Source: Paramecium tetraurelia
Taxonomy: Eukaryota
Direction of reading: 5' to 3'
Length of the DNA stretch: 64,000 nucleotides
Assembly (NCBI GenBank): GCA_000165425.1
Contig: CT868041.1
Coordinates: forward strand, 310,001 to 374,000
The position numbers were made by a program, and so were the translations under genes. The notes beneath the pieces are model-generated. The model was given only the letters and a program-made list of their open reading frames with translations. It was not told the origin of the DNA and searched no databases. This document shows, one piece after another, positions 27,695 through 46,374 of the stretch. Numbering within the stretch: the first letter of the stretch is position 1; every line of letters starts with the position of its first letter.

Positions 27695-28876
27695 TCAAAT
27701 TATGATTTCATCTTCATCATCATTATTTTAATTTTCATTCTAACTGATAACTTTATCTTAAAGTTTCTCATTAATGTCTTCCTATTTACTTTGATTTTGT
27801 ACAATTTATTAATTCTCCTTTTCTTATTAAGTTTTCTTTCTCTAATTGTTTTCAGTGACCTCCTCCAGTTACTCCTGTTTCTATTGTTGCTATATTGGTT
27901 ATTGATATTCTTGAAAAATATTATTTTCTTAGAATAAATCCAATTTAATATTTAAACTCATCATTTAACAAGTATTTAATAACTATTTTATCATCTAATA
28001 ACCTTCTAAGGATTGCTAGTCATAATTCAGTTTATCTGAGTCATCTAAATTATTATTTCCTCTAAGATACACTAAATCAATATAGATATCATTATCAAAA
28101 TGTTATTAAGAATCTAGATCGTTTATTTTGAAACGAATGATATTTTTGAATAAGAACCCAGTATGAATTTAGAATCTAAATATTGGAAGTAGATCATTTT
28201 CTGGTGTAATGTGCTTGCATTTAAATACAACATCATTGCTTATTTATAAATTTGGGAGAATGAATATGCATTGTTCATTTTTTTGTATGATCTGATTTTT
28301 TTCTTCATATAGTATTCCTTTCCTATCCAATACTTGAAATAATGGTTTCAAATTCTAGAACTACTTTGGAATTCCACTTAAGATAACAGATTTCACCTTT
28401 ATAATTTGAGTGTTCAATTATCCATTAGTCAACAAATGGTGCAAGTACTTATGTATATACATGAGTTAAGATTTTAATGGAGATTTAAGTCCGATTGCTT
28501 TTGCAATAATGTAAAAACTCTCATCAATACTCACCTTAAAAACAAGAGACCAGAAAATCGAAAGGAGTATGGCACTCCTTCCTTTATTTTGTTAACAATG
28601 AATAATTGCAACGTTGCCTTGATGTTGTATCCAGTCCAAAATGGATTTACATATTAATAGTAACTCATAAAGAGGTGGACATGCAAATCCAATGTAAGAA
28701 TGCATTGAAACCTAATTCAGAAATAACTCTCTTGTATAGTCATGTTCACTCAAATTCCAAATATAATACTGATGTCCATATTGTTTATTTAGATACTAAG
28801 AAACAGATACGATGTATTCTTGCTTTGGAAAAGGCATCCAAAATACATTATCTGTAATTTAATATAAAGTTTTCAT
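27695..28876 (-). CDS. PTEN/tensin-like phosphatase domain + C2 domain protein
   Basis: YQITDNVFWMPFP, YYIWNLSE, CPPLYEL, VAIIHCQQNKGRS, DVVFKCKH, FHTGF. Confidence 0.8.
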
Positions 28877-28889
28877 AAAATATTAATTT

Positions 28890-30192
28890 ATGGATTATTA
28901 GAAGCATCTAAAGATACTGAAAGAGACTTTGGAATAACATAAGATTACTCCAGAAAATTTGAGAGAAAAAAGATTGTCCTTCAAAGAGTTCCCAAAACAA
29001 ATAAATAATAGAGTAGTTGATGCCTTTTAATCATTTGCTCCTTTCGATAGAGCACCAGTTTGGATGATGAGGTATATTTTATGTAGAATGTCAAAATTAG
29101 ACAAGCAGGAAGATATCTCCCAGAATACAGAGAAATTAAGGCAGAAATGGATTTTTTTGCTACTTGCCAAAATCCATTCATTGCTGCTGAAATCACATTA
29201 TAACCAACGAAACAATTTGATATTGATGCAGCAATCATCTTTTCTGATATTTTAGTTTTACCTAAAATGATGGGAATGGAAGTAAGAATATTTTTAAGAA
29301 TATTTTAGATCACAATTGAAGAAAAGAAGGGACCAGTAATTGCAAATCCATTGGTTACTCCAGATGATATTTAAAGACTTCATCCTCCTAATCCAGAACA
29401 TTTGGAACATGTTTATGATGCTCTATTTTTGACCAGATTGGCATTACAAGGAAAGTGTAATCTCATAGGATTTTGTGGTGCTCCTTGGACTGTCTTTGCA
29501 TATATGATAGAAGGGGGGTCGAGCAAACTATTTTCCAAAGTTAAGAAATGGCTGTATTTATACACGGAGGGGTCCTTGTAGGTTTTAGAATTGCTAGCAA
29601 AGGAGAGTGCCAAGTATTTAATCAATCAAGTCAAGTAAGGTGGGGCTTAAGTTGTTTAGATATTCGACTCTTGGGCAGGGTATCTCTTATAATTTAATGT
29701 AGTTAAATTCCAGCATAGGATTACATAGAATTTATCATTCCTTCTTTAAGAATATTGTTTGAAGATTTCAAGAAGGAGTGTCCAGATACTCCTTTAATTA
29801 TGTTTCCTAAGGATCAGAATGATAAGAAAGTTATCGTTGAATTTTTAAAATTGATATATAATGATAAACCCTTAGTTGATGGATTCCAACTAGATTCAAA
29901 TGTGAGTGATGAAACTCTGGTTAAGATTATTGAAGCCAATAGAACCATATAAGGAAATCTAGAACCAGGAGTAATTCTAAATACTAATCTATTCTAGGTC
30001 TTATACGGGACTCCTGCAATAATTAAAAAGAGGATTTCGCAAATGATTGAGAAGCTCCAGACCACTAGGAGATACATAGTTAATTTGGCACATGGACTTA
30101 CTCCAGATCATGAGGTGGAGAAAGTCCGATTGTTTGTTTAAGAGTCTTAACGTCAATCAAAATTATACAAAGCCAAGGAAATTTTGGAATGA
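28890..30192 (+). CDS. UROD: uroporphyrinogen decarboxylase
   Basis: [58 protein letters not shown]. Confidence 0.96.
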
Positions 30193-30696: not shown

Positions 30697-31187
30697 ATAT
30701 ACTCAATCACTATTGTTTAATGTTATTATTTATTCCTTATATTTAGTTTTATATAATTTTATTAATGATGGCTTCTCTATAAATTAAACTAAGTAAATTA
30801 GAGTCTTTTTATACCGACCATCCCTCGAATACAATTAAAGACCCTGCTAATAATGCAATAAAAATTTTTTGAAATTCTAATGAAACGTGTTTTATAAAAT
30901 TTAATTTTATAAAGTCATTTTTTATTAACTGAGTCTAGTAACTCTCCAAACATAATACACCTTAAAGCAATTTAGGATGAGCATTTCTTCCCCCACAATC
31001 ATCAATAAGATCACTGATAAGAATTGTTCTGAGCCTCATTTTGATCGATTCCGATGATTCTGAATGATAATAAATTTGATGGTAGAAAGAATTATTTTAA
31101 TGAGAAAATTCTGGTTATTAAAATTTTCAGTACAAATTGATTATTTTTAAAGCAATAATAAATTAATATTTGTTTGAAAAATAAAAA

Positions 31188-31394
31188 ATGGGTTGTAGTT
31201 CCGCTAAGGGAAAAAGGAAGGGTTCACTCTCTATCCCAAAAAATGGTATTTTGAAAAGACCTAGCAATCAGCAATAAGTGTTATCAGATTTAGTTAGTAC
31301 CAAAAAGAAGACTCTCAGTTTTTAAATGCTATCAATTAATTCCTAAGAAGCAAATAGAAGAAGTAGCCATACAAGGCAGATTATATCTGACTGA
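31188..31394 (+). CDS. 68-aa MGC microprotein with GILK and RVxF-like motifs
   Basis: MGCSSAKGKRKGSLSIPKNGILKRP..KKKTLSF..RRSS; A-rich context before the ATG. Confidence 0.65.
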
Positions 31395-31853
31395 TACGAC
31401 CGAAATGTGTGATTATATTTTGATTATATGTTGTAGTTTATAATAGAGTATTAAAAAATCGTTCTACTTTTATTGTCTTTTCTTTAGTCGATCTCATGAA
31501 CCAATTACTTATTATTTAGAATACCCAAGGGAACACGTCTCAACTTATATATCAACAGTACTGTTTACATTATTGAATGAAGTTTTAAATTGAGGTTACA
31601 TTTTATACAAAATTTGATGATTTTATGACTACATATATATTGAGAACTTCGAATCTCATTTCAACGATATGAACTCTGTTTTGATGTTTTTAATAAATAT
31701 TATTGTTCTTAAATTAATATATATAATGCATTTGTAAATTAATGCAAAAATATTTAATTAAATTTAATTTATTAATTAAATTCCACTTCATAAAATGAAC
31801 TACAAAGCAATGCATAATTGCAAGGAATTCGAATAATTAAATATTTAGAATTG

Positions 31854-32906
31854 ATGAGTTGGGGATAGCCAGAATAAGCACCTTAGCAAGAATAATCTTG
31901 GGGTAATACTGAATCAACATGGGGCAATAATGGTGGTGACTAATAGTAATAGGATAATAAACCTGCTTGGGGAGGAGAATCAAATGATGGTTAGGAGAAT
32001 AGGGAATTCAGAGGAAGAGGCGGAAGAGGAGGCAGAGGTGGAAGAGGAGACAGAGGAGGAAGAGGAAGAGGAGGTGATAGAGGAAGAGGCGGTGATAGAG
32101 GAGGACGAGGAGGCAGAGGTAGAGGAAGAGGCAATGATGAAAACAAGGAGGAAGGAGAGATCAAACCTAAAACTGAAAGCGGAGGCTGGGGATAGTAGAC
32201 ATCAGATGGATGGGGTTAAACTTAGTAAGAGAATAAAGAACCAGCTCAAGGGTAATCCGATGGTAATAATTGGGGGGGAGGAGCACCTACTGAGAATGCT
32301 GGAGGATGGGGATAATCGAATAATGAAGCTCAAGGGTGGGGTGGAAATTAAGAAAATAATAATAATCAGGATGGTTAATAGGAATAATAGAAGGGTAAGG
32401 GGAAAGGAAGAAAGAGAGATTCACCTCCTCCTGCGAAGAGAGTTAGGCCTAATCCAATAGTGATTACAGTAGAAGATGAAGAGGATAGTGAAACTTAACA
32501 TGTTATAATAAATGAATATCCAGTGTTGCAAAACAAGTAGAAGGGACTGATCAAGAGTGAGGAATAGTAAATATGTTTTGAAGGTAATTTGAAGATAGAT
32601 GAAAATAATATGAGTGCATAATTCGTTAGTTTTGATACCGAAATAAAAGTTAAAATTGATTAAATCGAAGATTACACAATAGAGAATTCAAAGGATTTAC
32701 TGAAAACTATTGGAGATTCAATAATAGTAGGAATAGTTCAAGGTGTTGACAAGGATAATCAGAAGGCTATAAATAAATTAGCAGACAATCTTTTGGATAA
32801 GCAACAGTCGATTCACTTCAAAGATGTCAGTCTATTTAGCATCAAATAATTGTATAAGGGAGAGAGTACTTCAAGATTGGCATTCGTCAAGTAGATTTAA
32901 GGGTGA
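31854..32906 (+). CDS. WG/GW-repeat and RGG-box protein with globular C-terminal domain, 350 aa
   Basis: intronless frame with nine WG dipeptides flanking an RGG block, and basic KRDSPPPAKRVR. Confidence 0.88.
32010..32132 (+). repeat. purine-rich AGA-GGA repeat encoding the RGG box
   Basis: RGRGGRGGRGGRGDRGGRGRGGDRGRGGDRGGRGGRGRGRG. Confidence 0.9.
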
Positions 32907-32946
32907 TGATTATGGATATTATTAAATAAAATATGAATGTAATTTT

Positions 32947-33833
32947 TCAATGTTTCACTGGATGTGGGTGTTCGTGATTCCATTCTTCATAAGACCCATC
33001 AAATAGAAGTAATCTAATATATATATGTATTTGCTATTACTCTTTTTTCTTAAGAATTTCTTAGGCCAGAAGTGCAATGCAACTTAATTTCCCAGTTTGA
33101 CAAGTGTTAACAATTTTCTTGGTAATATCAATTTAGTGACTTTTGTATAGCTTTTGTAAATTTTCAGTAGATTTCATGGTGTGATCGTCATTCAAGTACT
33201 CTGAATAGGGTAAATTATACGATCCAGGTATAGATCCCTTCTTGTACCTTGGTTGATCCCTTGCATCCAAAAGTAGCCAATCATCACCTTTTGGGTCCTT
33301 GTGTTGTTTGAGATAGGAAATCACGGATACATCGTTTGTAGTTAAGGAGGTCACTTAATCCTTTGGTTAGTCCTCTTGAAATAAACACTAATCATACACT
33401 TATTCAAATCCTCAAAAACTTTGCTTTCATGTTTATCGATGTCGTGTTGATGATGCCACTTATTAAATCCACCATCTAAGACATAGACTCTTTTGAATCC
33501 GAAATATCTAAAGGTAAACCAAGCTCTGGCAGCGAAATGAATGTGTTCATCAAAAAATACGATGGGAGTCAGATGATCATATTAATTGTCCTGAATATAT
33601 TTCTCAAAAGTGTTTTTGGTTGGTAATTTACGAGGTACTGGAACAGGAGTAGCTGTGATATCAATTAAATTGAGGGTTGATTAGTCCAAAGTAATTCTGT
33701 GAGCATGGGTGAATTTATTGTTTTCTTCTTAGTTATGATGATGATCTGTCATGATTACATTGACTATTTTTATTCTGGATTTATTTTTGACTAGATAATG
33801 CAAGTATGGTGCAGAAATCAATGATCCACGCAT
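32947..33833 (-). CDS. tandem rhodanese sulfurtransferase (TST/MPST family)
   Basis: AARAWFTFRYFG..VLDGG, LLDARD..GSIPGS, TCQTGK active loop, FDGSYEEW. Confidence 0.88.
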
Positions 33834-33970
33834 TTTTAATATAAAATTGATTAATTTAGGAATTCGATATTAAATATTGTGTAGTATTTAATATTAATTA
33901 TGAAAATTGAAATCACTAAATAGACACAGAGGGGATAAATTAAATATCCTTTTGTGAGTAATAAATAATT

Positions 33971-36900
33971 ATGAATTTACTTTTATTTATTACTTTGATT
34001 AAATCATGCTACAACTAGGCTGTGAATACTTATGTTAAAATCGGATGTGTTGAGATAGTAAATGGGAATTGTGTAAAATTATGCAAACTTGGATTGTTCG
34101 ATTGTGATGATTATCAGAATCTTATTTGCGAATATGGATACTTCAACTACGAAAGTACCTGTGTTCAATGTCCGAAATAAAATCTGAATGATGATTCTGT
34201 AATTTATTGTGGAGATTGTATTGATAATTCTAAGACATGGTAAAATTCCAGGTTGTGCACTTACGATTTCATAATAGAAGATGACGATAGATTGAATGGA
34301 GCCTACATAAAACGAATTAATGAGTACAGCGAATTATATGTTATTGGCGTTGCTACCACTTAATTAATGTGGAATAAACCCATTGCACGTGATACAACAA
34401 GACAATACGAATCCTAGATTTGCAGTGGATGTCATACTATTTGTACATCAACATCAGATCCGTTCTGCAATACCATATCCAATGAAGTAGATCAGCTAGT
34501 TAAAGGAATCACTTGTTTGGATGGATATTTTTTTTAGAATGGAGTCTGTGTTGCCTGTGGCATCAATTGCATAGAATGTAAGGATAGATACACTTGTGTT
34601 GAGTGTTATTCTGGTTACTATCTAAATGGTTTAGTGTGTGATAAATGCTAATCCAATTGTTTGGATTGTCTCAAACCTATTACCGAAGCAACCATCAAAT
34701 GCTACTCCTGTTTAAGTCCAAATATCATTTCTATTGATAGATCAGTCTGTGAAAGTTGTGGTGACTCCTGCTTACGATGCGAGTATGTTAGTTATGACTA
34801 GATCACCAAATATAAATTTATCACCAGAGATAACGTGGACCCGGCAATCGATGACATCAATAGATATGTCAAAAGATGCAGACAGTGTGATGGCAATAAC
34901 TTGGTTGATTACAGAGGATAAGATTGTGTACAATGTTAAATCAAAGATTGCTTAAAATGTTATTATACTATCACTATGGGCGGAGTCTCTAGGTCTACAC
35001 TTGATCTAGACTTTTAGCCTCTAAAACCATCAGAGTAGGCATCCTAATAGCTATGTTACTTATGTGCATCTGGCACCTCTCTAAGTCCTGATATGACTTA
35101 ATGTATGCCCTAGGCTCCTACTACACCTGTAGTAGATTGTCTTTACTATGGAGACAGCAGCAACAAATGCTAGCAATGTTAGAATTATCAAATCTTGGAT
35201 TTTGATAACAATCTGTGCAAATCAGATTTCTGCTTTACATAAATCAAAAATTGTCAGAATTGTTATCAATATCGAACAATAAACATAGTCCAATAGAAGA
35301 CATTCTATCATTGTACTAAATGTGAGGAATACTATTATCCTGATTTTTTCACGGGAACATGCGAACATTGTCCCAACCATTGTTCTTCTTGTTGGTAATA
35401 CTCATAGACTTACAATTTCACTTTGTACAATGAAATCCCAAAAATCATTCAAAATAGAAAGATCTATTATTTAGATGGTGCTATAAATATCTATTGTTCA
35501 GAATGTGAAAGCGGCTTTTAATTGTACAATAATTAATGTTTGGGATGCACAAGCAATTGCATGATACCTGCAACTGGAGTAGCAACCTTAAAATCGTCTT
35601 GTCTTTATAAATCTAAATATGCATTATGCTCCTAATGTTATGAACCCTTATATCAAAGATCACTTACTTCTGATCTATCAGAATGTCAAGAATGTCCGAA
35701 TTACTGTCTTGCCTGTCATGAACGATTAAAATCCTAATTTCCTAACAAGTACTTTAACCCAAGCAGTCAAATCCTACAGAAATACAGTAGATCATGCTAT
35801 AAATTATAAACTGTAAGTGGAGGTTCTGCAGTTATTCATTATAATTCCTAACTCAACATGCCTGTTAGTTGTAATACAGATTAGCCTTGTAGATACAAAT
35901 ATGACATTGACTTAATCCTCTTTTGCAGCGTTGAGGATTATCTGTCATAATTGACATTTTCCCCATCGAATGCCAAATTCTATTATAATCTAGCTACCTC
36001 TTATACGACTAAAAGTGAGGATGTTGCCACCATCAAATTTGCAAATCTAGAAACATTAGTGTTTTATGAGTATTTGAACACTCTACCACTTGAAATCCTG
36101 AATTTGAATCTTAAAATTAAAGGTGATAGTAATAATAATTGCAACTTCTCAAAATCTACTAGAATCCTGACCCAATTTCATGAAAATGTCTTTTCTTTAA
36201 TAGACTTCAAGTTCACAATTATGAGTTATTCATCAGACCCCTTGAATTTGTATGTGAATGGAAATTTTACACTCTCCAATTATCCCAATATTATCATCCA
36301 GAATATAAGACTGTACACACAAGAATCCTAGTTCATTTTCAAACTAGATGAATGTTCAAACCTATTTCTTAGCAGTGTTTAATTTCAAAAGGTTTCCTCA
36401 ACTGCACTTTAGATTCTACTATAAAATTTGGACAAACTAGATATGCAAGATGTCACCTTTGACAACTTTACAGGCACTAACGATATCATTTCCTTCTCTC
36501 CAATAAAGCAAATAGTAATGTAGAATGTTGTCTTCAACTCATTAAAATTAAAGTCTATTTATTTAATAGAAATGCACCCATAAGTTGATATTAAGATGAA
36601 CAATATTAAGATAAGCAACTCTGTCTTTGTAGATTTTCATTTCATTGGTGATTTAGAACCCAACGATTAATTGATTGGCAAGACTATTATAATTGGTCTA
36701 GAGATAATCAATAATACATTTAATAGTTCCTTCATTTTTAAGACTTCGAATAGTGAGAAGTTCTTTTTAAGTCAATTATCATTTAAAGATAATCTAATTT
36801 ATGATTCAGAGTTATTTATCTCTAATCATTTTATTTTTTCAAATGCCTTGATTTACAATAATCAATTTGGAGTTGGAGCCAGTTTATTAGGAACTAGTGA

Positions 36901-39900
36901 TGAAATATTTGAGGAACAATTGTATACTTTGAGTGAGTCCAATTTCACAGACGTTCAAATTGTAAACAATAGTTGCTATCAATCCTTGATATAAATACAA
37001 TCACCATTCAATCAATAATATATTGTGATGAATATCAAAATCGATTCACTATATGTAGATCAAATTGAAACTTCAAAAGATGGCACTCCACTTATTTAAA
37101 TTAAGGAAGTTGGATATATTTAAATTAATAATTTAATTATAAAAAACCTCTTAAAAGTAACAGGACTAGAAATCAAGCAAGCTACCTGGGTATGGATTAA
37201 TCAATTTGAGTGTGACTCAGCCAATTAAAATACATAGATGCCTATTCAAGAAAGTTGTTTTGAGCAAAAGGAAGCCAATTCTTATTGCTTGCACATAGAA
37301 GAATTTGATAGGGGAGTGTATCTGTAGAATGGCATAATCAAGAAGCAATTATAGATGGATTCTTCCTTAATTTACATAAAATCCTTTGATTACTTGACTA
37401 AGAACACTGAGAGTAACGTAGAACTGGATAATTCAAAGTTTTTTTTTGGTTATAGTAATGAGTTAGTCAAATTGGAAGATATCAAATTCTATAATAATAC
37501 CTTGGCAATCTTGGATCCGTAGATAAAGATATCATCGATAGTAATAGATTCAACTTAAAGATAAAAGGTTCTTATAAGTGATTTAACTTTTGTTGGAAAT
37601 CATCTGCATCGAATTCCTCCATCAGTCAATGTTGATTTGGTTACGTGCATATTAATAGATTCGCCTTTAGCTGATCTCATTATTACTAATAGCGAGTTTC
37701 TAGATAATAGAGCAACCAAGTCCATTTTAGGTCTAAACAAATTTATAGTGGATAGTGTGATATTGGATAGTCTCAATATGCAAGATACAAATGTAATTTA
37801 GATATATTATGCTGATATATTGGAAGAACACTCATTATTTACTTAAGATCCAAAGGTAGAGATATAGAACATTCAGAGTTACTTTGAAATTTAATCCTTG
37901 GGATCTAATATCTATTTTGATTGTGATAACATAAGTATTTCAAATTTAACAATCAATAATTCAGTTGGATTGGATGGTGCAGGTATGTTTATAGTTGGAA
38001 GCGAGAAATTAGTTGTTAAGATGTCTGATATAGTGATGAAAAACTTGGTTTGTTCGTTGGAATATGATACTCTAGGCTGTGGTATGTACATCAACACATA
38101 GGTGTCTTCACTATCTTTAGAGATTTAGGATATGACCATGGATAAGATAATCGCATATCAAGGAGCTGGTATTTATATTCTGAGTTAACAATTTCTTATC
38201 TAAGTGAGCATCAGAGATTCAATATTCCATCAATGTCAATCTCTTGATTCTTAAGTGTTCTATTTCAAGCAATAGACATTCACTACTTCAATACCTTCAA
38301 TCCTTTTTGACAACTGTACTGTCTATAATAACCATTATGATAACTACTTATTGAATATAATCACATTAAGACCATAAATTGATTATGATGCCAGAGTGGA
38401 GGATGAAAATCAGCTGATTTCTATTGATTATGCCACAATTACGATTACAAATTGTCTATTTACTGATATATCTTTTACTACGATATTGAAATTACAAAAT
38501 ATCATCTAATTGACTATTTTGAATACCAATATCAACAATGTAGCTATTGGATTATCTAAATTGATTAATTTGGAATTCTATAATTAAGTGGGACACATAT
38601 CGATATCTGGATTGATTATTCAAAATGTTTATCCATATCCTTAATGGGATTAGTAGCAGATGGATTATTTAAAATCAAAGTATAGTGATCAACTCGAATC
38701 TTCGACAGTGGCTGAATAGGTTGATCAATTATAAGAATGCAAATTGCCTAAAACTTCTGGTTTTGTAGTGAATCTTGCAACTATTTCATATGACATTGAT
38801 ACTAGCAAAATACCTAGGAATCCTGTTCAATACAGTAAATTCAATACTACATTATATACCTACTATACTAATTATGAAGATACTTCATTAATCACTTATT
38901 TGTACTCCGAATATATTATTAATAATTTAATTAACTCATATCCGGCCTTAATTTACTTACCAGATGTGGACTTCATTAGTACAGATGCTTCAACACTCTC
39001 ACACTCTCTCTAAATTAACAAACTACTCCTAAAATCTATTACATGTGGATATTGCACTTATGGTTTATTTTATATTTAAAATATCAACACCAAAGCAAAT
39101 AAAAGCATTGTGTTGAATGAAGTCAATTGTGTCAACAATGTTGTAGATCAATATGGATGCATAAATTTAAAAGGAAGAACAACTAGTGATTTGAAAAACA
39201 CAAAGATCTATACAATCATAGTTGAGAATAGCAATTTCATGAATAATTAAGCAGTTTATGGGGCTGGTTTGAGTGTGTAAAATGTATCTCTATATCTCAA
39301 GAATACCTCCTTCTTAGATAATACAGCCACTAAAACAGGTGGAGCCATTCTATTCTCTCAATCTAATAAATAAATATATTTGGAGGAGGTTACCATTTAA
39401 GGGAACAAAGCAGATATTGGTGGGGGAATCTACATGAATGGTTAGAGCTTACCTGGTTAGGATGTCAATATTATTGGCAACACAGGTAGAAGTCTAGTTG
39501 AAGAAATACCCTAGCATCTGAGCATTTCGATGATCAAGGGTGCTATTTTACCGACTAAAGTATTTGATACTAATATTGATGCACTCTCATTAACGTTGAA
39601 TCTACCATCTGGTCAAAGCATCTCATCCTACAAACTTTACTATCAACCAACATAGGAGTAAGTCCCATATGATTGGATATTCAGAGTCATGAATTTAGAT
39701 AGAAATCACAATCCAATCTTAACAGCCTCATTAACAGATACATGTAATATCACAGGGAGAATGTAGAATTCTGAGAACTTTGATAAAACTCTCAAATTCC
39801 TTAGTAATTATACATAACCTTCGCTCATCTATTTTAGCGATGAATCATTCAATCTAGATGAATTAATAATTACATTTGATCCATATTTACCTGAATAATA

Positions 39901-41890
39901 CTACCTTCAGTTACAGTTTTAATGTTCAACTATAAAATTACCAATCGAACCATATCCTTATCAATCCTATAGTACAAACTATGCATTATATGTCAATCTT
40001 AGAACATTGCCTTGTTAATTAGGAGAAGCATATACTGCATAAAAGTGTTAAGTTTGTGGGAAAGGTTAGTATGCTTTAACAATCAATTAAGTTATATGCA
40101 CAAATATGGATGTTTAATCAATGGAGGAAGTGACACCAGTGAGAATAAAACTGTTTTCTGGATATTGGAGATACGATAATGATAGAGTAGAGAACTGTTA
40201 TAATTTGGAAGAGAATTGCAATGGCGGATGGATTCCAGGAAATCCTTCCTGTTACTCTGGACACACTGGAGCATTGTGTGAATCATGTGATATCTATGGC
40301 ATCAGGGGAGAACAGTATAGCATAAGTACAAAATACAAGTGTGGATAATGTTCACAAACAAAGTCGAATAATTCCTTAACGATTGCAGCCATCTGCATTT
40401 TCACTCTGCTTTAGATGGTATTGTCGGTTAGAGGTAACTTTTAGATGATCGAAAACTTTATCAAAGAATAAGTATTATAATCAATCGGAGTAAGGATGAA
40501 TGTAACGTAAGCAAACTTGTCGATTTTGATAAAGATCGTAATCAATTATTTCTAGATAATAAGTGCCTTGGGAACATTTCGAATATCCATTCCTACTAAT
40601 TTAATATCCTCAGTTGACATAGTAGCCAATCCTACTCAATCGATGGCTTATTCTTTGGATTGCTTCCTGATTGAGATAACCATTACTGAGATTTTGTATT
40701 TCAGAATGATTTGGGCATTAGTGATGCCACTAATTTATTTGTTAATCTTCTTCATGGGGTATTTCCTTGGAGTCATCACAACCTTCTTACCAGCCAGGAT
40801 GAATATTATCTATACTACCTTCATCTACATGTTCATATATCTGCAGCCCACACTAATAGGTGGGTTCATAGCCTTATTGTCATCGAGAACATTGGGAGGT
40901 GTGGATTTTGTGTAATCAGACGTTCAGTATCTATATGACAGCAGTACTCACTATTTTTGGATGGTAATATTCGCAGCACCGAACATCTTCTGTTGGGGAG
41001 CCTTGTTCCCTTACATCTTCATGCATTTGATCAGGAGGAATAACCAAACGTTGACTTCAATTCAAACTCGCAGGAAATATGGATACTTTTATAATGAATA
41101 TACCTAACATGCTTATTTGTGGGAATTCGTTAAGATCTTTGAAAAGCAGTTTGTGTTGATGGCTCTCACTTATTATGAAGATACGGTGATCATTAAAGGC
41201 CTTATGGTATTTTTGATTGTGTTTATCTATGGGATCCTATCCTTTGAATTTTAACCTTATTAGAGTAAGAGACTTAATTATATTGATCAAATGTCTGCAG
41301 CCGTATGCGTGTTTTCACTCTGTTTGGGAGTTCTAATAAAGGCTTCTTAGAGTGAGAACATGGAATATTTGTAATTTATAATGTTTTCAATTATCGGAGT
41401 TCTGAATTTGCTCTTTTTATTGATCCTTCTCTTTGAAGTGTTTCGTGGATACATCGACAAATTCGAAATTCATATAGACAAGATTAGAGACAAGATCAGA
41501 TAGAAGTACCCGCAATTTTAGAATTACAAATGGATTCGTCAACTTCTGATCAACAGAGGAGAATTAAAGAAGAGAATTAAAATTCTTTGGTCTCATCTGC
41601 GATATCAAACTCACAGAGGAATAATGAGGAGAAGACAGGACAAGAATCTACCTCTATTTGAAGTCAAGTTGATTCTCTAGGACTCAGAGAAAGATATAGA
41701 TCATTCCCGTGCCGAATCCAGAGTGGAATCAAAGGCAAATTCGAGATTGTCAGTCATTGACATAAATCAAGAGGAACTGATGCAGTTAGCTAATTACAGT
41801 AGTTTATAGGCCAAAACGCCAGAGATCCAAAAGATCTACCCTTTGGAGAGTTAGAAGAGTATTGCTTAGTTGACAAAAAAGAGAATATGA
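33971..41890 (+). CDS. giant surface protein: signal peptide, furin-like Cys repeats, beta-helix region, multi-TM C-terminus (2639 aa)
   Basis: 7920 nt; the main ORF-track fragments share its frame; CxxC repeats; GGAI/GGGIY; GHTGALCESC; NYFQ, SLDC, YGYFYNEY, WEFVK. Confidence 0.9.
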
Positions 41891-43000: not shown

Positions 43001-46000
43001 ATGTAAATTCATATTAAAATAATTTCACAGCCTCCGAAAAGAAGTGCATCGGATATTTATTAAGAATTGAAGAATTGGTTAAAGAAGAACGAAATTAATC
43101 TAAATATTCATTGCATTAAATTAAAGCCTGAACCTGTGGAGGAACTCTAAAATCAGATCAAGAAATCTCAATTTTGGAACTCTAAAATTTTAAAATCAAT
43201 CTCTGAAGATTCTATAGTCTAATTTATCTCAAAGATTGAACCGAAACTTTATAATGATTCCAAATTCGTTCTAGGCAAGTAATTAGATTACTGTGAAATG
43301 ATTGAAGATTTATTAGTAAAACCCTAGGAGGATTTATTTGGAGTTCCGAATTGGCACCCTACAATTAGACCATAAAATTTGTAATAAGTGTCTTAAGGCA
43401 ATACACAATGCTACATATATTTTTATGGGTAGGATATCCAAAAACTCAGATTGTATGAAGATGAAAAAAATCAGAAACAAATTAGTCTTTTCGGAAAGCA
43501 ATACCTTCTTAAAGGGTAGGCACAGAGACGTGAGTTAAAAATAATTAAGGACAACTTTAAATCAATACCTGGAATTGAGTTTTAATTTGGAATCTTAAGT
43601 AAGGTTTTTTATTAGTATTGGTCTACTGCCTAAATCTAGAAGTACTACAATGAGGATACTTTTCAAGTCTAAGATATTAATTTAGAACTCTAAAATACTC
43701 AAGTTAGAGTGTATTTTAGTTTGATTTTGGACAGAACTAGAAAAATTAATTGTTTAATCTAATTTCAAACCAAAAAGGATGGAAATGTTAAAGAAGTAGA
43801 ATATAATAAAACATATTCGAATGGAGGCATTATTGTTGATAAATCAAAAGATGAAAATCAAATTAATTTCTATATTAAAGTTCTTGATACACCCAAATGT
43901 TATATTCAAGAGGATTATGATTATGATAAATACAAAAATCAAAAAGATATCAAATTTTGGAGATCATAGAATTTCGTATAAAATGATATAAGGAACATTA
44001 TTTAAGCAGGAATCATAAGACAATCATCTTCTCTAAAGTTCACAGTGCATCATAGCTAAACTTAGAATGAAAATTTTTATAATTTTTGTTAAGAAATTGA
44101 AAATTAAGGATACTTAGAGAAATTTATGGGAGATCAACACATTTAAATGAAAAGAATTTCAGAACTTAGTAAGACTGAGGATAAATTCAACGTTAGAATT
44201 GGTTTAAATTGGATGCTGCTATCTGCTGCCTTTGGTCGATGCAAAATGATTTAACCGAACATAAAATTTCAAGACTTTATAGAATAGGTCAAAGAATTGC
44301 CTCCTTTAGCCATAGCATATTAAATAAAGAACTTGAAATAGAAAAAATAAGAAAAAAAGGATAAGGAAATTTTCTAATTTGACAAATTTTTAGACATGTA
44401 AAATAAAATTAATTATTAGTGTTAAAAAAAATGGTTAAAAACATCCTGAAGATATTTTAGAAGAAACTCTATTGGCAGATCTTACACCTACTGGAATACT
44501 GCCTAATTATTCCATATAGGAGTGCATTCCTTTTTATGATTTAGAAAGGTTTTGGAGATAGTAAATTAAAGGCAAATTATAAACTAAATCAAAAGGACTC
44601 ATGGAGGAAATAGTTAAGATTAGGATTAGAGATGACAACTTTGAAATCTTAAGATAAAAGTAATTTGATAAACATCAATAAAAGCACTTTTTATTTTCAG
44701 GCTATTTTAGAGAACTACTGAAAGGCAAGCTGAACATAGTAGAAAGAAATTATAAATTCTTAGGTTATGATTGCAGAGGACTCAGAAAAGGTGAATTTTA
44801 TGCTATAAACTCTGAGTATTTCGAAAACACATATCAATATATGTTTTAGTAGTTGATGAAATCATATGAAAATAACCAAAGAATAGTGAAATGTTCTTAA
44901 ATTCAGAAGATATTCAATGAACATTTAAATCATATCAATACATCCCTTTCACTGAACGAAATCGAAAATAAGTTATTAGACAAAAAATTTGAACTAGACA
45001 TTTAATAAGATCAACTTTAAAAAGGGCCATTGATTCAAACAAAAGTTGACACTAAATAAATAAATAGGAAAAAGACTTAAGAAAATAATTACAACTATAA
45101 AATACTCATGCCTTAAGGAAAAGCATCAAATGATGTAATAAAATTGATGAACGAAATAGCATTTGAAGGGCAGAATACAGATTATTGTTGTTTTATCATC
45201 AGGTATTAAAATTACAAAGGAATGCTCACCAAAATGGCCAATCCTAATAAAGAAGGTGTTATTCGATTGTATGATAATATGATAGACAAAAATTCTCCAA
45301 CAAATCAATATATGGAAGGATTAAATTAAAAATGTTGGGTAGAGAAGAAAAAATTAGATGAAATACAAATATTAGGAGTGCCTGAATTTAAACCATGTGT
45401 GTTAAGATTGTTTTAGATCCTAAATATAATAAGTCTTGAGGTTGAAACTAATGAAAAGAAAGTGTTTAAGGCCTTTCGGAAATATTTTCATATGTTAAAA
45501 TAAACAGTAAGCAAGTAAAACGACCCAAATTAAGATCCTTTCTATATGAGAACCCTTAAGTAATATGAAAGAAAATAGGAATATTTGCTACCTGTGAAGA
45601 AGGGTGCATATTTAATGGGAGTCTATGATCCACTATTATAACCTGATGAGGTTTTTATCAATGTGTAATACGAAGAAGAGAATTAAAGTTTTGTTGTTTA
45701 AGACTAAAAAATAATAATTTTCAAAAAAAATTATTTGATGAAGGATGCAATCAGTTTGTTTTAAAACACTAGTAAGGCAAATTAGGAATTACTGGCTTAA
45801 CGTTATAAGAATGTGATTGTATTTTCAGTTCATATGCTTGGAGACAAGTTTCCTCAAGATGAGTTTGATGATAAGTAAAAATTTGTAGCAATTTGGGATT
45901 AGAAACTTATACCTGATATTGCAATTACACTTTTTGATGGTAAAAATTATTGTAAAAGTTTCAAAAATAAAATTCAAGGATAAAATTCTCAAAATCAAGC

Positions 46001-46374
46001 TTCAATCGATCAACATTTTGATAAAACTGAATGGCTATCAGGGTTATAAACTTAGGCAATTGATTTCTTCTGTGTATTCCAACAATCTTGTAACTTTAAT
46101 GAACTTAAAACTATTTATACTAAAATTATGCTCCAAAATCTATTGTATTAAAGAGATGCGTCGTTTTAAAAGATCTTTGAAAAAATTACAATCTAATTAA
46201 AGATTATTAATATAATAGGAATGAAATATGCAAGTACTTAGGCTTAAAAGACAAATGTATTTAGTTTAATTTATCGTTTAATAGTATTCTGAAATCTTGA
46301 AGCATCTAAAAAACATCGATAAGGAAATGTTAAATATAGATCTTGCAGTTGAATAATATTTCCAAAAATAATGA
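43001..46374 (+). CDS. divergent cellular RNA-dependent RNA polymerase family protein (non-canonical active site), about 1107 aa
   Basis: LTPTG, IRIRDD, RNYKFLGYDCRGLR, IRYQNYKGML, LMGVYD..LQPDEVFI, NVIVFS..DEFDD..AIWDQKLIP; introns 44398-44419 and about 46256-46283. Confidence 0.85.

Follow-up and report, generated by a model that had tools for sequence, protein, structure and literature searches.

A compact WG/RGG protein of the Paramecium aurelia complex as a candidate member of the Argonaute-hook class

Our analysis of a 64,000-nt stretch of DNA (hereafter the window) identified, on its + strand, a real, transcribed and unspliced gene of a Paramecium aurelia-complex species, which is under purifying selection and encodes a protein of 350 aa. 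Judged from sequence, this protein is built of four parts, namely a predicted disordered tail with WG motifs (four plus five) and an RGG block, an NLS-like patch, an invariant hydrophobic-acidic stretch and a conserved domain of approximately 120-150 residues. Within the limits of our searches this GW/RGG protein, combining a short one-piece architecture with an orphan domain, appears uncharacterised and is a candidate member of the Ago-hook class. We regard the finding as a sound candidate, cheap to test, and not yet as a discovery; what the earlier note saw is confirmed, and its interpretation has partial support.

The coding sequence (31854..32906, +) is complete and intronless, as indicated by the open reading frame, stranded RNA depth, synonymous variants and homologs. 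It forms a single ATG-to-TGA frame, open in this code only, under NCBI table 6 (ciliate code), in which TAA and TAG are read as Gln at 30 codons. For its transcription, three oligo-dT stranded RNA runs with the same species label (58-nt reads) were mapped to 30800-34300. RNA depth was limited to approximately 31849-32915, with a read direction opposite to that of the rhodanese-like neighbour, fitting RNA from the + strand. No splice joints were present in the 58-nt reads of the three runs and the frame is therefore intron-free, in agreement with the earlier note, which had proposed an intronless 350-aa frame in the ciliate code. Depth per bin along the gene was approximately 320-1740, 29-331 and 0-190 in the three runs, compared with approximately 10-30 for the neighbour, corresponding to a gene-to-neighbour ratio per bin of approximately 5-50 in two of the three poly(A) runs and up to approximately 10 in the third. 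The gene is thus abundant and also regulated, about ten-fold between three samples of one study, because its depth changed approximately ten-fold between runs while that of the neighbour was steady. RNA fragment ends clustered at 31849-31862 and 32913-32915; the 5’ ends lie 1-5 nt upstream of the ATG (53 of approximately 74 at 31853 in the deepest run) and the 3’ ends 7-9 nt past the TGA. The mRNA is therefore little longer than the ORF and seems to be almost devoid of untranslated regions.

The reads also carry sequence variation. In the deepest run, 11 positions between 32051 and 32866 showed a second letter in roughly 5-40% of the reads, and nine of these are third positions of codons in the WG/RGG frame, eight of the 11 being synonymous, including two exchanges between TAG and TAA. 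A 222-nt contig from a different run showed five differences, each of them likewise synonymous, and inspection by eye of loose ends at 32074 and 32451 revealed an RGG block of different length together with three more synonymous changes. These variants are most simply explained by a near-identical paralog that is co-expressed and under purifying selection. As a separate observation, a few reads (18 in run X21 and 5 in run X23) differ over the acidic stretch at 32471-32490, just before 32491, where they would code for non-acidic residues and may stem from a third, more distant copy.

The synonymous nature of most variants supports the code-6 frame over a Glu-rich +2 frame of 176 aa (31930-32460), the sole long ORF of the locus under table 11 and the frame by which, as the earlier note had recognised, an ORF track misreads the locus. 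This status under table 11 is what speaks for the view that there is no gene here or that the Glu-rich frame is the real product. However, the organism reads TAA and TAG as sense, the 350-aa frame contains 30 such codons and has full-length homologs, the nine third-position variants (eight of the 11 variant letters being synonymous) are counted in the WG/RGG frame, and a Pfam scan of the Glu-rich frame gave no match. The code-6 frame, the homologs and the synonymous variants together leave this view with a negligible probability, and we regard it as refuted for practical purposes.

Several other genes were observed in the window. A convergent rhodanese-domain gene (33023-33841, -; Pfam PF00581, E 7e-10) has its 3’ end approximately 100 nt from that of the WG/RGG gene, and two stretches, one of 27 nt at 33014 and one of 23 nt at 33375, are absent from an RNA contig, most likely representing tiny introns of the Paramecium type. 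Approximately 12 kb downstream of the WG/RGG gene lies an RdRP-like ORF (44601-46292, +, perhaps together with 43001-44449, +) with a weak but clear match to the Pfam RdRP family (PF05183, E 9.6e-16, profile positions 30-422 of 582). This would be another gene of the RNA-silencing type in the window; in a eukaryote, such nearness is no evidence for a common pathway. In addition, an unbroken ORF of 2639 aa (33971-41890, +) has a Cys-rich, repeat-like N-terminal part and a C-terminal part with what look like many membrane spans, the two parts that were scanned having no Pfam match, and an ORF at 27695-29716 (-) matches the PTEN C2 domain (PF10409, E 3e-13) and has a poorly reading N-terminal half that probably contains unremoved introns.

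The anatomy of the 350-aa protein is unusually ordered with respect to its tryptophans. All nine (residues 3, 16, 23, 39, 112, 120, 140, 152 and 162) are followed by Gly, four of them being also preceded by Gly (GWG), and all lie within residues 1-186, leaving residues 187-350 as well as the RGG block and the folded part free of Trp. From the N-terminus, the motifs read SWG, SWG, TWG and AWG, then GWG, GWG, NWG, GWG and GWG. The first cluster (31854..32003, +; residues 1-50, with W3, W16, W23 and W39) is rich in Gln, Gly, Asn and Glu and is followed by the RGG/RG block from R53 to G93 (32010..32132, +), in which 41 residues hold eight RGG and 15 RG, with F52 just before it giving one FRG. At the DNA level, this block is encoded by a degenerate tandem array of 9/18-nt units (32011-32131, +). 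The second cluster (32133..32408, +; residues 94-185, with W112, W120, W140, W152 and W162) contains two GGWG as well as DGWG, NNWG and QGWG at spacings of 8-20 residues, and a basic KGKGKG run follows. Across both clusters, the motifs stand in a Gly/Gln/Asn/Glu/Ser/Thr context and are spaced by 7-20 residues within each, while G, Q, N and E dominate the composition of residues 1-186 as a whole.

Downstream of the tail, an NLS-like basic patch, KRDSPPPAKRVR (residues 187-198; 32412..32447, +), contains PAKRVRP, which would fit the consensus of a classical monopartite nuclear localisation signal; its SPPP-KR-R pattern is invariant in all eight family members. It is followed by PIVITVEDEEDSE (residues 201-213; 32454..32492, +), a stretch with an invariant core that consists of a hydrophobic strand and then an acidic/Ser tail. 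Here P201, I202, V203, I204, V206, D211 and E213 are invariant, and the pattern P-I-V-I-x-V-x-D-x-x-D-x-E-T is present in 8/8 members. The succession of IVITV and EDEEDSE would fit the consensus of a SUMO-interacting motif (SIM), and might just as well form the first strand of the folded part. The last part is the conserved C-terminal domain (residues 231-350; 32544..32903, +), which is delimited by alignment and BLASTP and is an orphan by sequence. The arrangement described in the earlier note (four WG, a 41-residue RGG block, five WG and a basic patch) was reproduced by script in each listed detail.

Two controls exclude chance as the source of the WG pattern. Only one in 100,000 shuffles of residues 1-186 attained nine WG, and of the 183 ORFs spanning 100 aa or more in the six code-6 frames of the window, the other 182 contain at most one WG each. 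The WG pattern is therefore not a product of chance.

Sequence searches including BLASTP, the method that the earlier note had advised, returned relatives in Paramecium aurelia species only, in a long and a short form. A collection of 5.8 billion sequences contains no identical protein. The top match, from P. sonneborni, is an unnamed protein with a length of 352 aa and a BLASTP identity of 74% over 97% of the query (83% in the alignment, and 90% in its C-terminal part), and a second long copy of P. sonneborni falls into the same 90% cluster. Both P. sonneborni long forms have ten WG and 13 RG and retain the RGG block, which is nine residues shorter in the alignment. Short forms, 212-226 aa long when measured from the conserved initial MSWG, occur in P. 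tetraurelia (GSPATT00011173001, UniProt Q3SE48), P. octaurelia, P. primaurelia, P. pentaurelia and P. sonneborni, the gene models of P. primaurelia and P. pentaurelia being N-terminally extended. They retain MSWG, the basic patch, the hydrophobic-acidic stretch and the C-terminal domain; all five are without an RGG box and have WG counts of 3, 3, 3, 3 and 1, the lowest belonging to the P. sonneborni short form (P0006), in which the second Trp precedes Ser. C-terminal identity to the protein of the window amounts to 60-88% in the alignment and 62-90% by BLASTP (five homologs), and for the short forms to 60-68% and 62-70%, respectively (four homologs). The annotated proteomes of P. tetraurelia, P. 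octaurelia, P. primaurelia and P. pentaurelia gave the short form only, and apart from this window only P. sonneborni yielded the long WG/RGG form.

Searching 1.84 billion representatives with a family profile yielded only the family’s own two clusters and three weak matches of the repeat type, and this profile search found no relatives in other ciliates. As far as the collections go, in which un-annotated Paramecium species are poorly represented, the family thus appears confined to the Paramecium aurelia complex. The three weak matches (P0007-P0009, E 1e-6 to 1e-5, with 5-9 stretches each) were rejected, P0007 being a tandem-repeat protein. A search for longer proteins gave 12 matches (E 1e-4 to 8e-3), mostly without a BLASTP alignment, which we likewise set aside as compositional, there being no fused form among them. 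Ten of these 12 (P0012-P0023) are CUE-domain proteins (PF02845) of approximately 980-1140 aa, the four named ones being fungal, and proteins of this kind, which share the WG/Gln/Gly-rich composition, may form a separate WG-rich group.

Within the family, MSWG is invariant in 8/8 members and the number of WG ranges from one to ten. Among the three long forms, eight of 11 Trp columns are invariant compared with 79 of 142 other tail columns, a modest excess at shallow divergence and with few sequences; the corresponding values are 33 of 42 columns for the RGG block and 133 of 161 for the C-terminal part. The changes comprise one W replaced by L, one WG that is new in one copy and one that is missing from the protein of the window, and despite these losses and gains the totals hold at nine, ten and ten. 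Such steady totals would be the behaviour expected of a hook platform, the divergence being small enough to make this a weak test. The short forms, for their part, suggest that the family core can manage with far fewer WG.

The C-terminal domain is the part for which the earlier note had seen a loose resemblance to a SPOC fold. In sequence this resemblance was not borne out: Pfam gave nothing above threshold for the protein, no family was common to more than two of the eight members (and those two at E ~5), and SPOC (PF07744) and Ku matches were absent from 8/8 members scanned at E<=10. A DUF3108_like match (E 0.029) was rejected, the Pfam matches below threshold being mutually inconsistent, and so was, as a chance result, the best hit of a PDB sequence profile search (3k6q, E 0.17, 41 positions), which included no SPOC chain. 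At the level of the fold, AlphaFold2 gave an unusable model without an alignment (pLDDT 37.6) and a low-confidence model with the eight-sequence alignment (pLDDT 42.3, pTM 0.36), the latter predicting, for residues 239-347, the order strand, strand, helix, strand, long helix, strand, strand. A Foldseek search with this low-confidence model returned no match at E<=0.001, and below noise level the SPOC domain of SHARP stood at ranks 3, 26 and 49 among kinase N-lobes. In a wide structural search with the same low-confidence model, ten of 50 rows were Ku or SPOC by title, and four further rows (MED25 ACID, two INTS13-14 entries and Chp1-Tas3) belong to the same barrel class; in a second-look ranking, again below noise level, the top five rows were all Ku and SPOC chains. 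The structural half of the resemblance thus persists as a low-confidence model that ranks SPOC/Ku near the top, below noise, and a SPOC/Ku-like barrel is the leading fold candidate for this domain, at what we judge to be roughly even chances.

These results bear on the reading of the protein as a chromatin or DNA-repair adaptor, which would recognise SUMOylated or phosphorylated nuclear partners, have its key parts in the SIM-like stretch and a Ku/SPOC-like barrel, and carry its WG/RGG tail as a minor, lineage-specific add-on. It draws on the distribution of conserved parts, as the NLS-like patch, the PIVI-V-D--D-ET stretch and the C-terminal domain make up the invariant core of 8/8 members and the WG/RGG insert occurs in three of eight, and on the Ku and SPOC chains that fill the top five of the second-look ranking and, by title, ten rows of the wide search. 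However, the model behind these rankings has a pLDDT of 42.3 and a pTM of 0.36, none of the eight members has a SPOC or Ku match in Pfam, the SIM reading comes from a consensus pattern, and even the short forms keep the N-terminal MSWG and mostly three WG. Overall, we consider an adaptor of this kind unlikely.

The reading we favour, at a probability that falls somewhat short of even, is a nuclear RNA/Piwi tether resembling Nowa1/2, for which nuclear location, RNA binding, Piwi binding and the C-terminal partner are all features that we infer. The protein would be a small nuclear tether, a miniature of Nowa1/2, whose RGG box would hold RNA (probably nascent or non-coding transcripts), whose spaced tryptophans would receive Piwi-small-RNA complexes as an Ago hook does, and whose C-terminal domain, possibly a SPOC/Ku-like barrel, would together with the SIM-like stretch anchor the assembly to a partner in chromatin or transcription. 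We see this as the best explanation because Nowa1/2 provide a precedent for an RG-type element combined with GGWG.

A general RGG-box RNA-binding or RNP-granule protein, in which Trp and the Gly/Gln/Asn-rich parts would act as stickers or import signals and not engage Argonaute or Piwi proteins, is the main rival, its probability being only slightly lower than that of the tether. Eight RGG and 15 RG in 41 residues would suit such a protein, the high RNA depth is as compatible with an abundant housekeeping RNP protein as with a protein of development, the WG count varies from one to ten in the family, and the search for longer proteins gave only compositional matches (fungal CUE-domain proteins, E ~1e-4). 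Moreover, a WG/GW screen in Arabidopsis also caught RGG RNA-binding proteins of the RGGA type, eIF4B and Gly-rich proteins, and its authors caution about Gly-rich false positives (PMC2910046). On the other hand, the placement of 9/9 Trp in WG, with none in the RGG block or the folded part, is more ordered than the sticker model needs, the gene is regulated ten-fold between samples, a Paramecium-only family would be unusual for core RNP proteins, and the known ciliate proteins with RG-type and GGWG repeats act in small-RNA pathways (PMC3105430).

The idea of an obligatory hook is nevertheless weakened, because WG numbers range from one to ten, the long form is found only here and in P. sonneborni, and WG screens catch RGG proteins as well. 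Of the interpretation offered in the earlier note, the anatomy has stood, being real, conserved and expressed, and the hook as an obligatory feature has lost ground to this WG range and to the RGG proteins in published screens.

A more ambitious version of the tether would be a Paramecium-specific one-piece coupler that joins a Trp hook for Piwi-scnRNA complexes, an RGG clamp on nascent RNA and a SPOC-like module that recognises either the phosphorylated tail of Pol II or a chromatin partner carrying SUMO; in one branch of the aurelia complex, a recent insertion would have enlarged the hook. We rate this as distinctly improbable; if true, small-RNA scanning would be tied directly to the transcribing polymerase, in a compact analogue of Tas3-Chp1 in fission yeast and SPOCD1 in mouse.

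The literature we searched is consistent with the view that the protein had been uncharacterised, as had been suspected from the beginning. No description of the 350-aa protein was found in work on Paramecium GW, WG, RGG, Ago-hook or SPOC proteins, where the only statements concerned Nowa, and the identifiers of the P. tetraurelia paralog were absent from the papers searched as well as from the searchable supplements of PMC3091696 (three files), PMC5485702 (one) and PMC11602119 (one); pull-down tables under current ParameciumDB identifiers might list it.

In Paramecium, Piwi-bound small RNAs decide which DNA is discarded in the new somatic nucleus, and the way in which these complexes stay on nascent transcripts and connect to the chromatin machinery is understood only in part. 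Being small, abundant and regulated, the protein would make a candidate for this task that is cheap and direct to test, provided that it unites a WG platform of the Ago-hook type with an RGG box and a conserved orphan domain, and its paralogs with one, three, nine and ten WG offer a built-in experiment on what the hook adds. Should the protein turn out to be a plain RNA-binding protein, the case would still caution that the WG count of a Gly-rich tail is, taken alone, no predictor of Piwi binding.

Compared with known systems, the protein shows the traits of two classes, that of the Ago hook, with nine WG in a predicted disordered segment dominated by G, Q, N and E (residues 1-186), and that of the RGG/RG box, with eight RGG and 15 RG clustered between R53 and G93. 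GW182/TNRC6, NRPE1, SPT5L/KTF1 and Tas3 bind AGO-clade proteins, and most of them are much larger and have many more motifs. With these platforms it shares repeated WG/GW in a disordered and compositionally similar segment; their binding has been demonstrated, whereas the 350-aa protein is a putative hook. In Ago-hook platforms generally, only the WG/GW motif and a Gly/Ser/Asn/Gln/acidic composition are conserved, in a disordered context, according to the Arabidopsis study, which also describes in RGGA dense RGG/RG repeats beside WG motifs, similar to those seen here (PMC2910046). Unlike RGGA, the 350-aa protein has no hyaluronan/mRNA-binding or other known RNA-binding domain in Pfam and belongs to a family found in Paramecium only. 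For the C-terminal domain, the systems to compare would be SPOC-domain proteins (SHARP/SPEN, PHF3, RBM15 and SPOCD1) and barrels of the Ku type.

Closer in phylogeny are the Tetrahymena proteins Wag1p and CnjBp, GW-repeat partners of the Piwi-clade Argonaute Twi1p that are tied to scnRNA selection (PMC5666084). They too are ciliate GW-repeat proteins and illustrate that the Piwi proteins of ciliates work with GW hooks, but the profile search detected no sequence relation to the 350-aa protein, and their other domains differ. CnjB has zinc knuckles, and we know of no RGG block combined with the orphan C-terminal domain in either Wag1p or CnjBp.

The closest parallel is provided by Nowa1/2 of Paramecium itself, which are much larger proteins. 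The protein described here, at 350 aa, differs in having one contiguous RGG block between WG clusters instead of interspersed repeats and in its C-terminal domain, for which the profile search of 1.84 billion representatives and word-based searches with 4, 5 and 12 hits (the 12 being compositional) returned no Nowa-named or related protein outside the family’s own two clusters. The folded part thus has no detectable homology to any other protein of these collections, among which Nowa proteins should be included. In a 2011 report, Nowa1/2 are described as carrying FRG repeats interspersed with GGWG, which are read as binding nascent transcripts and as an Ago hook for Ptiwi01/09 (PMC3105430). 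Set beside this description, the protein of the window comes from the same genus and carries in its tail both an F-R-G/RGG-type element and motifs of the GGWG type.
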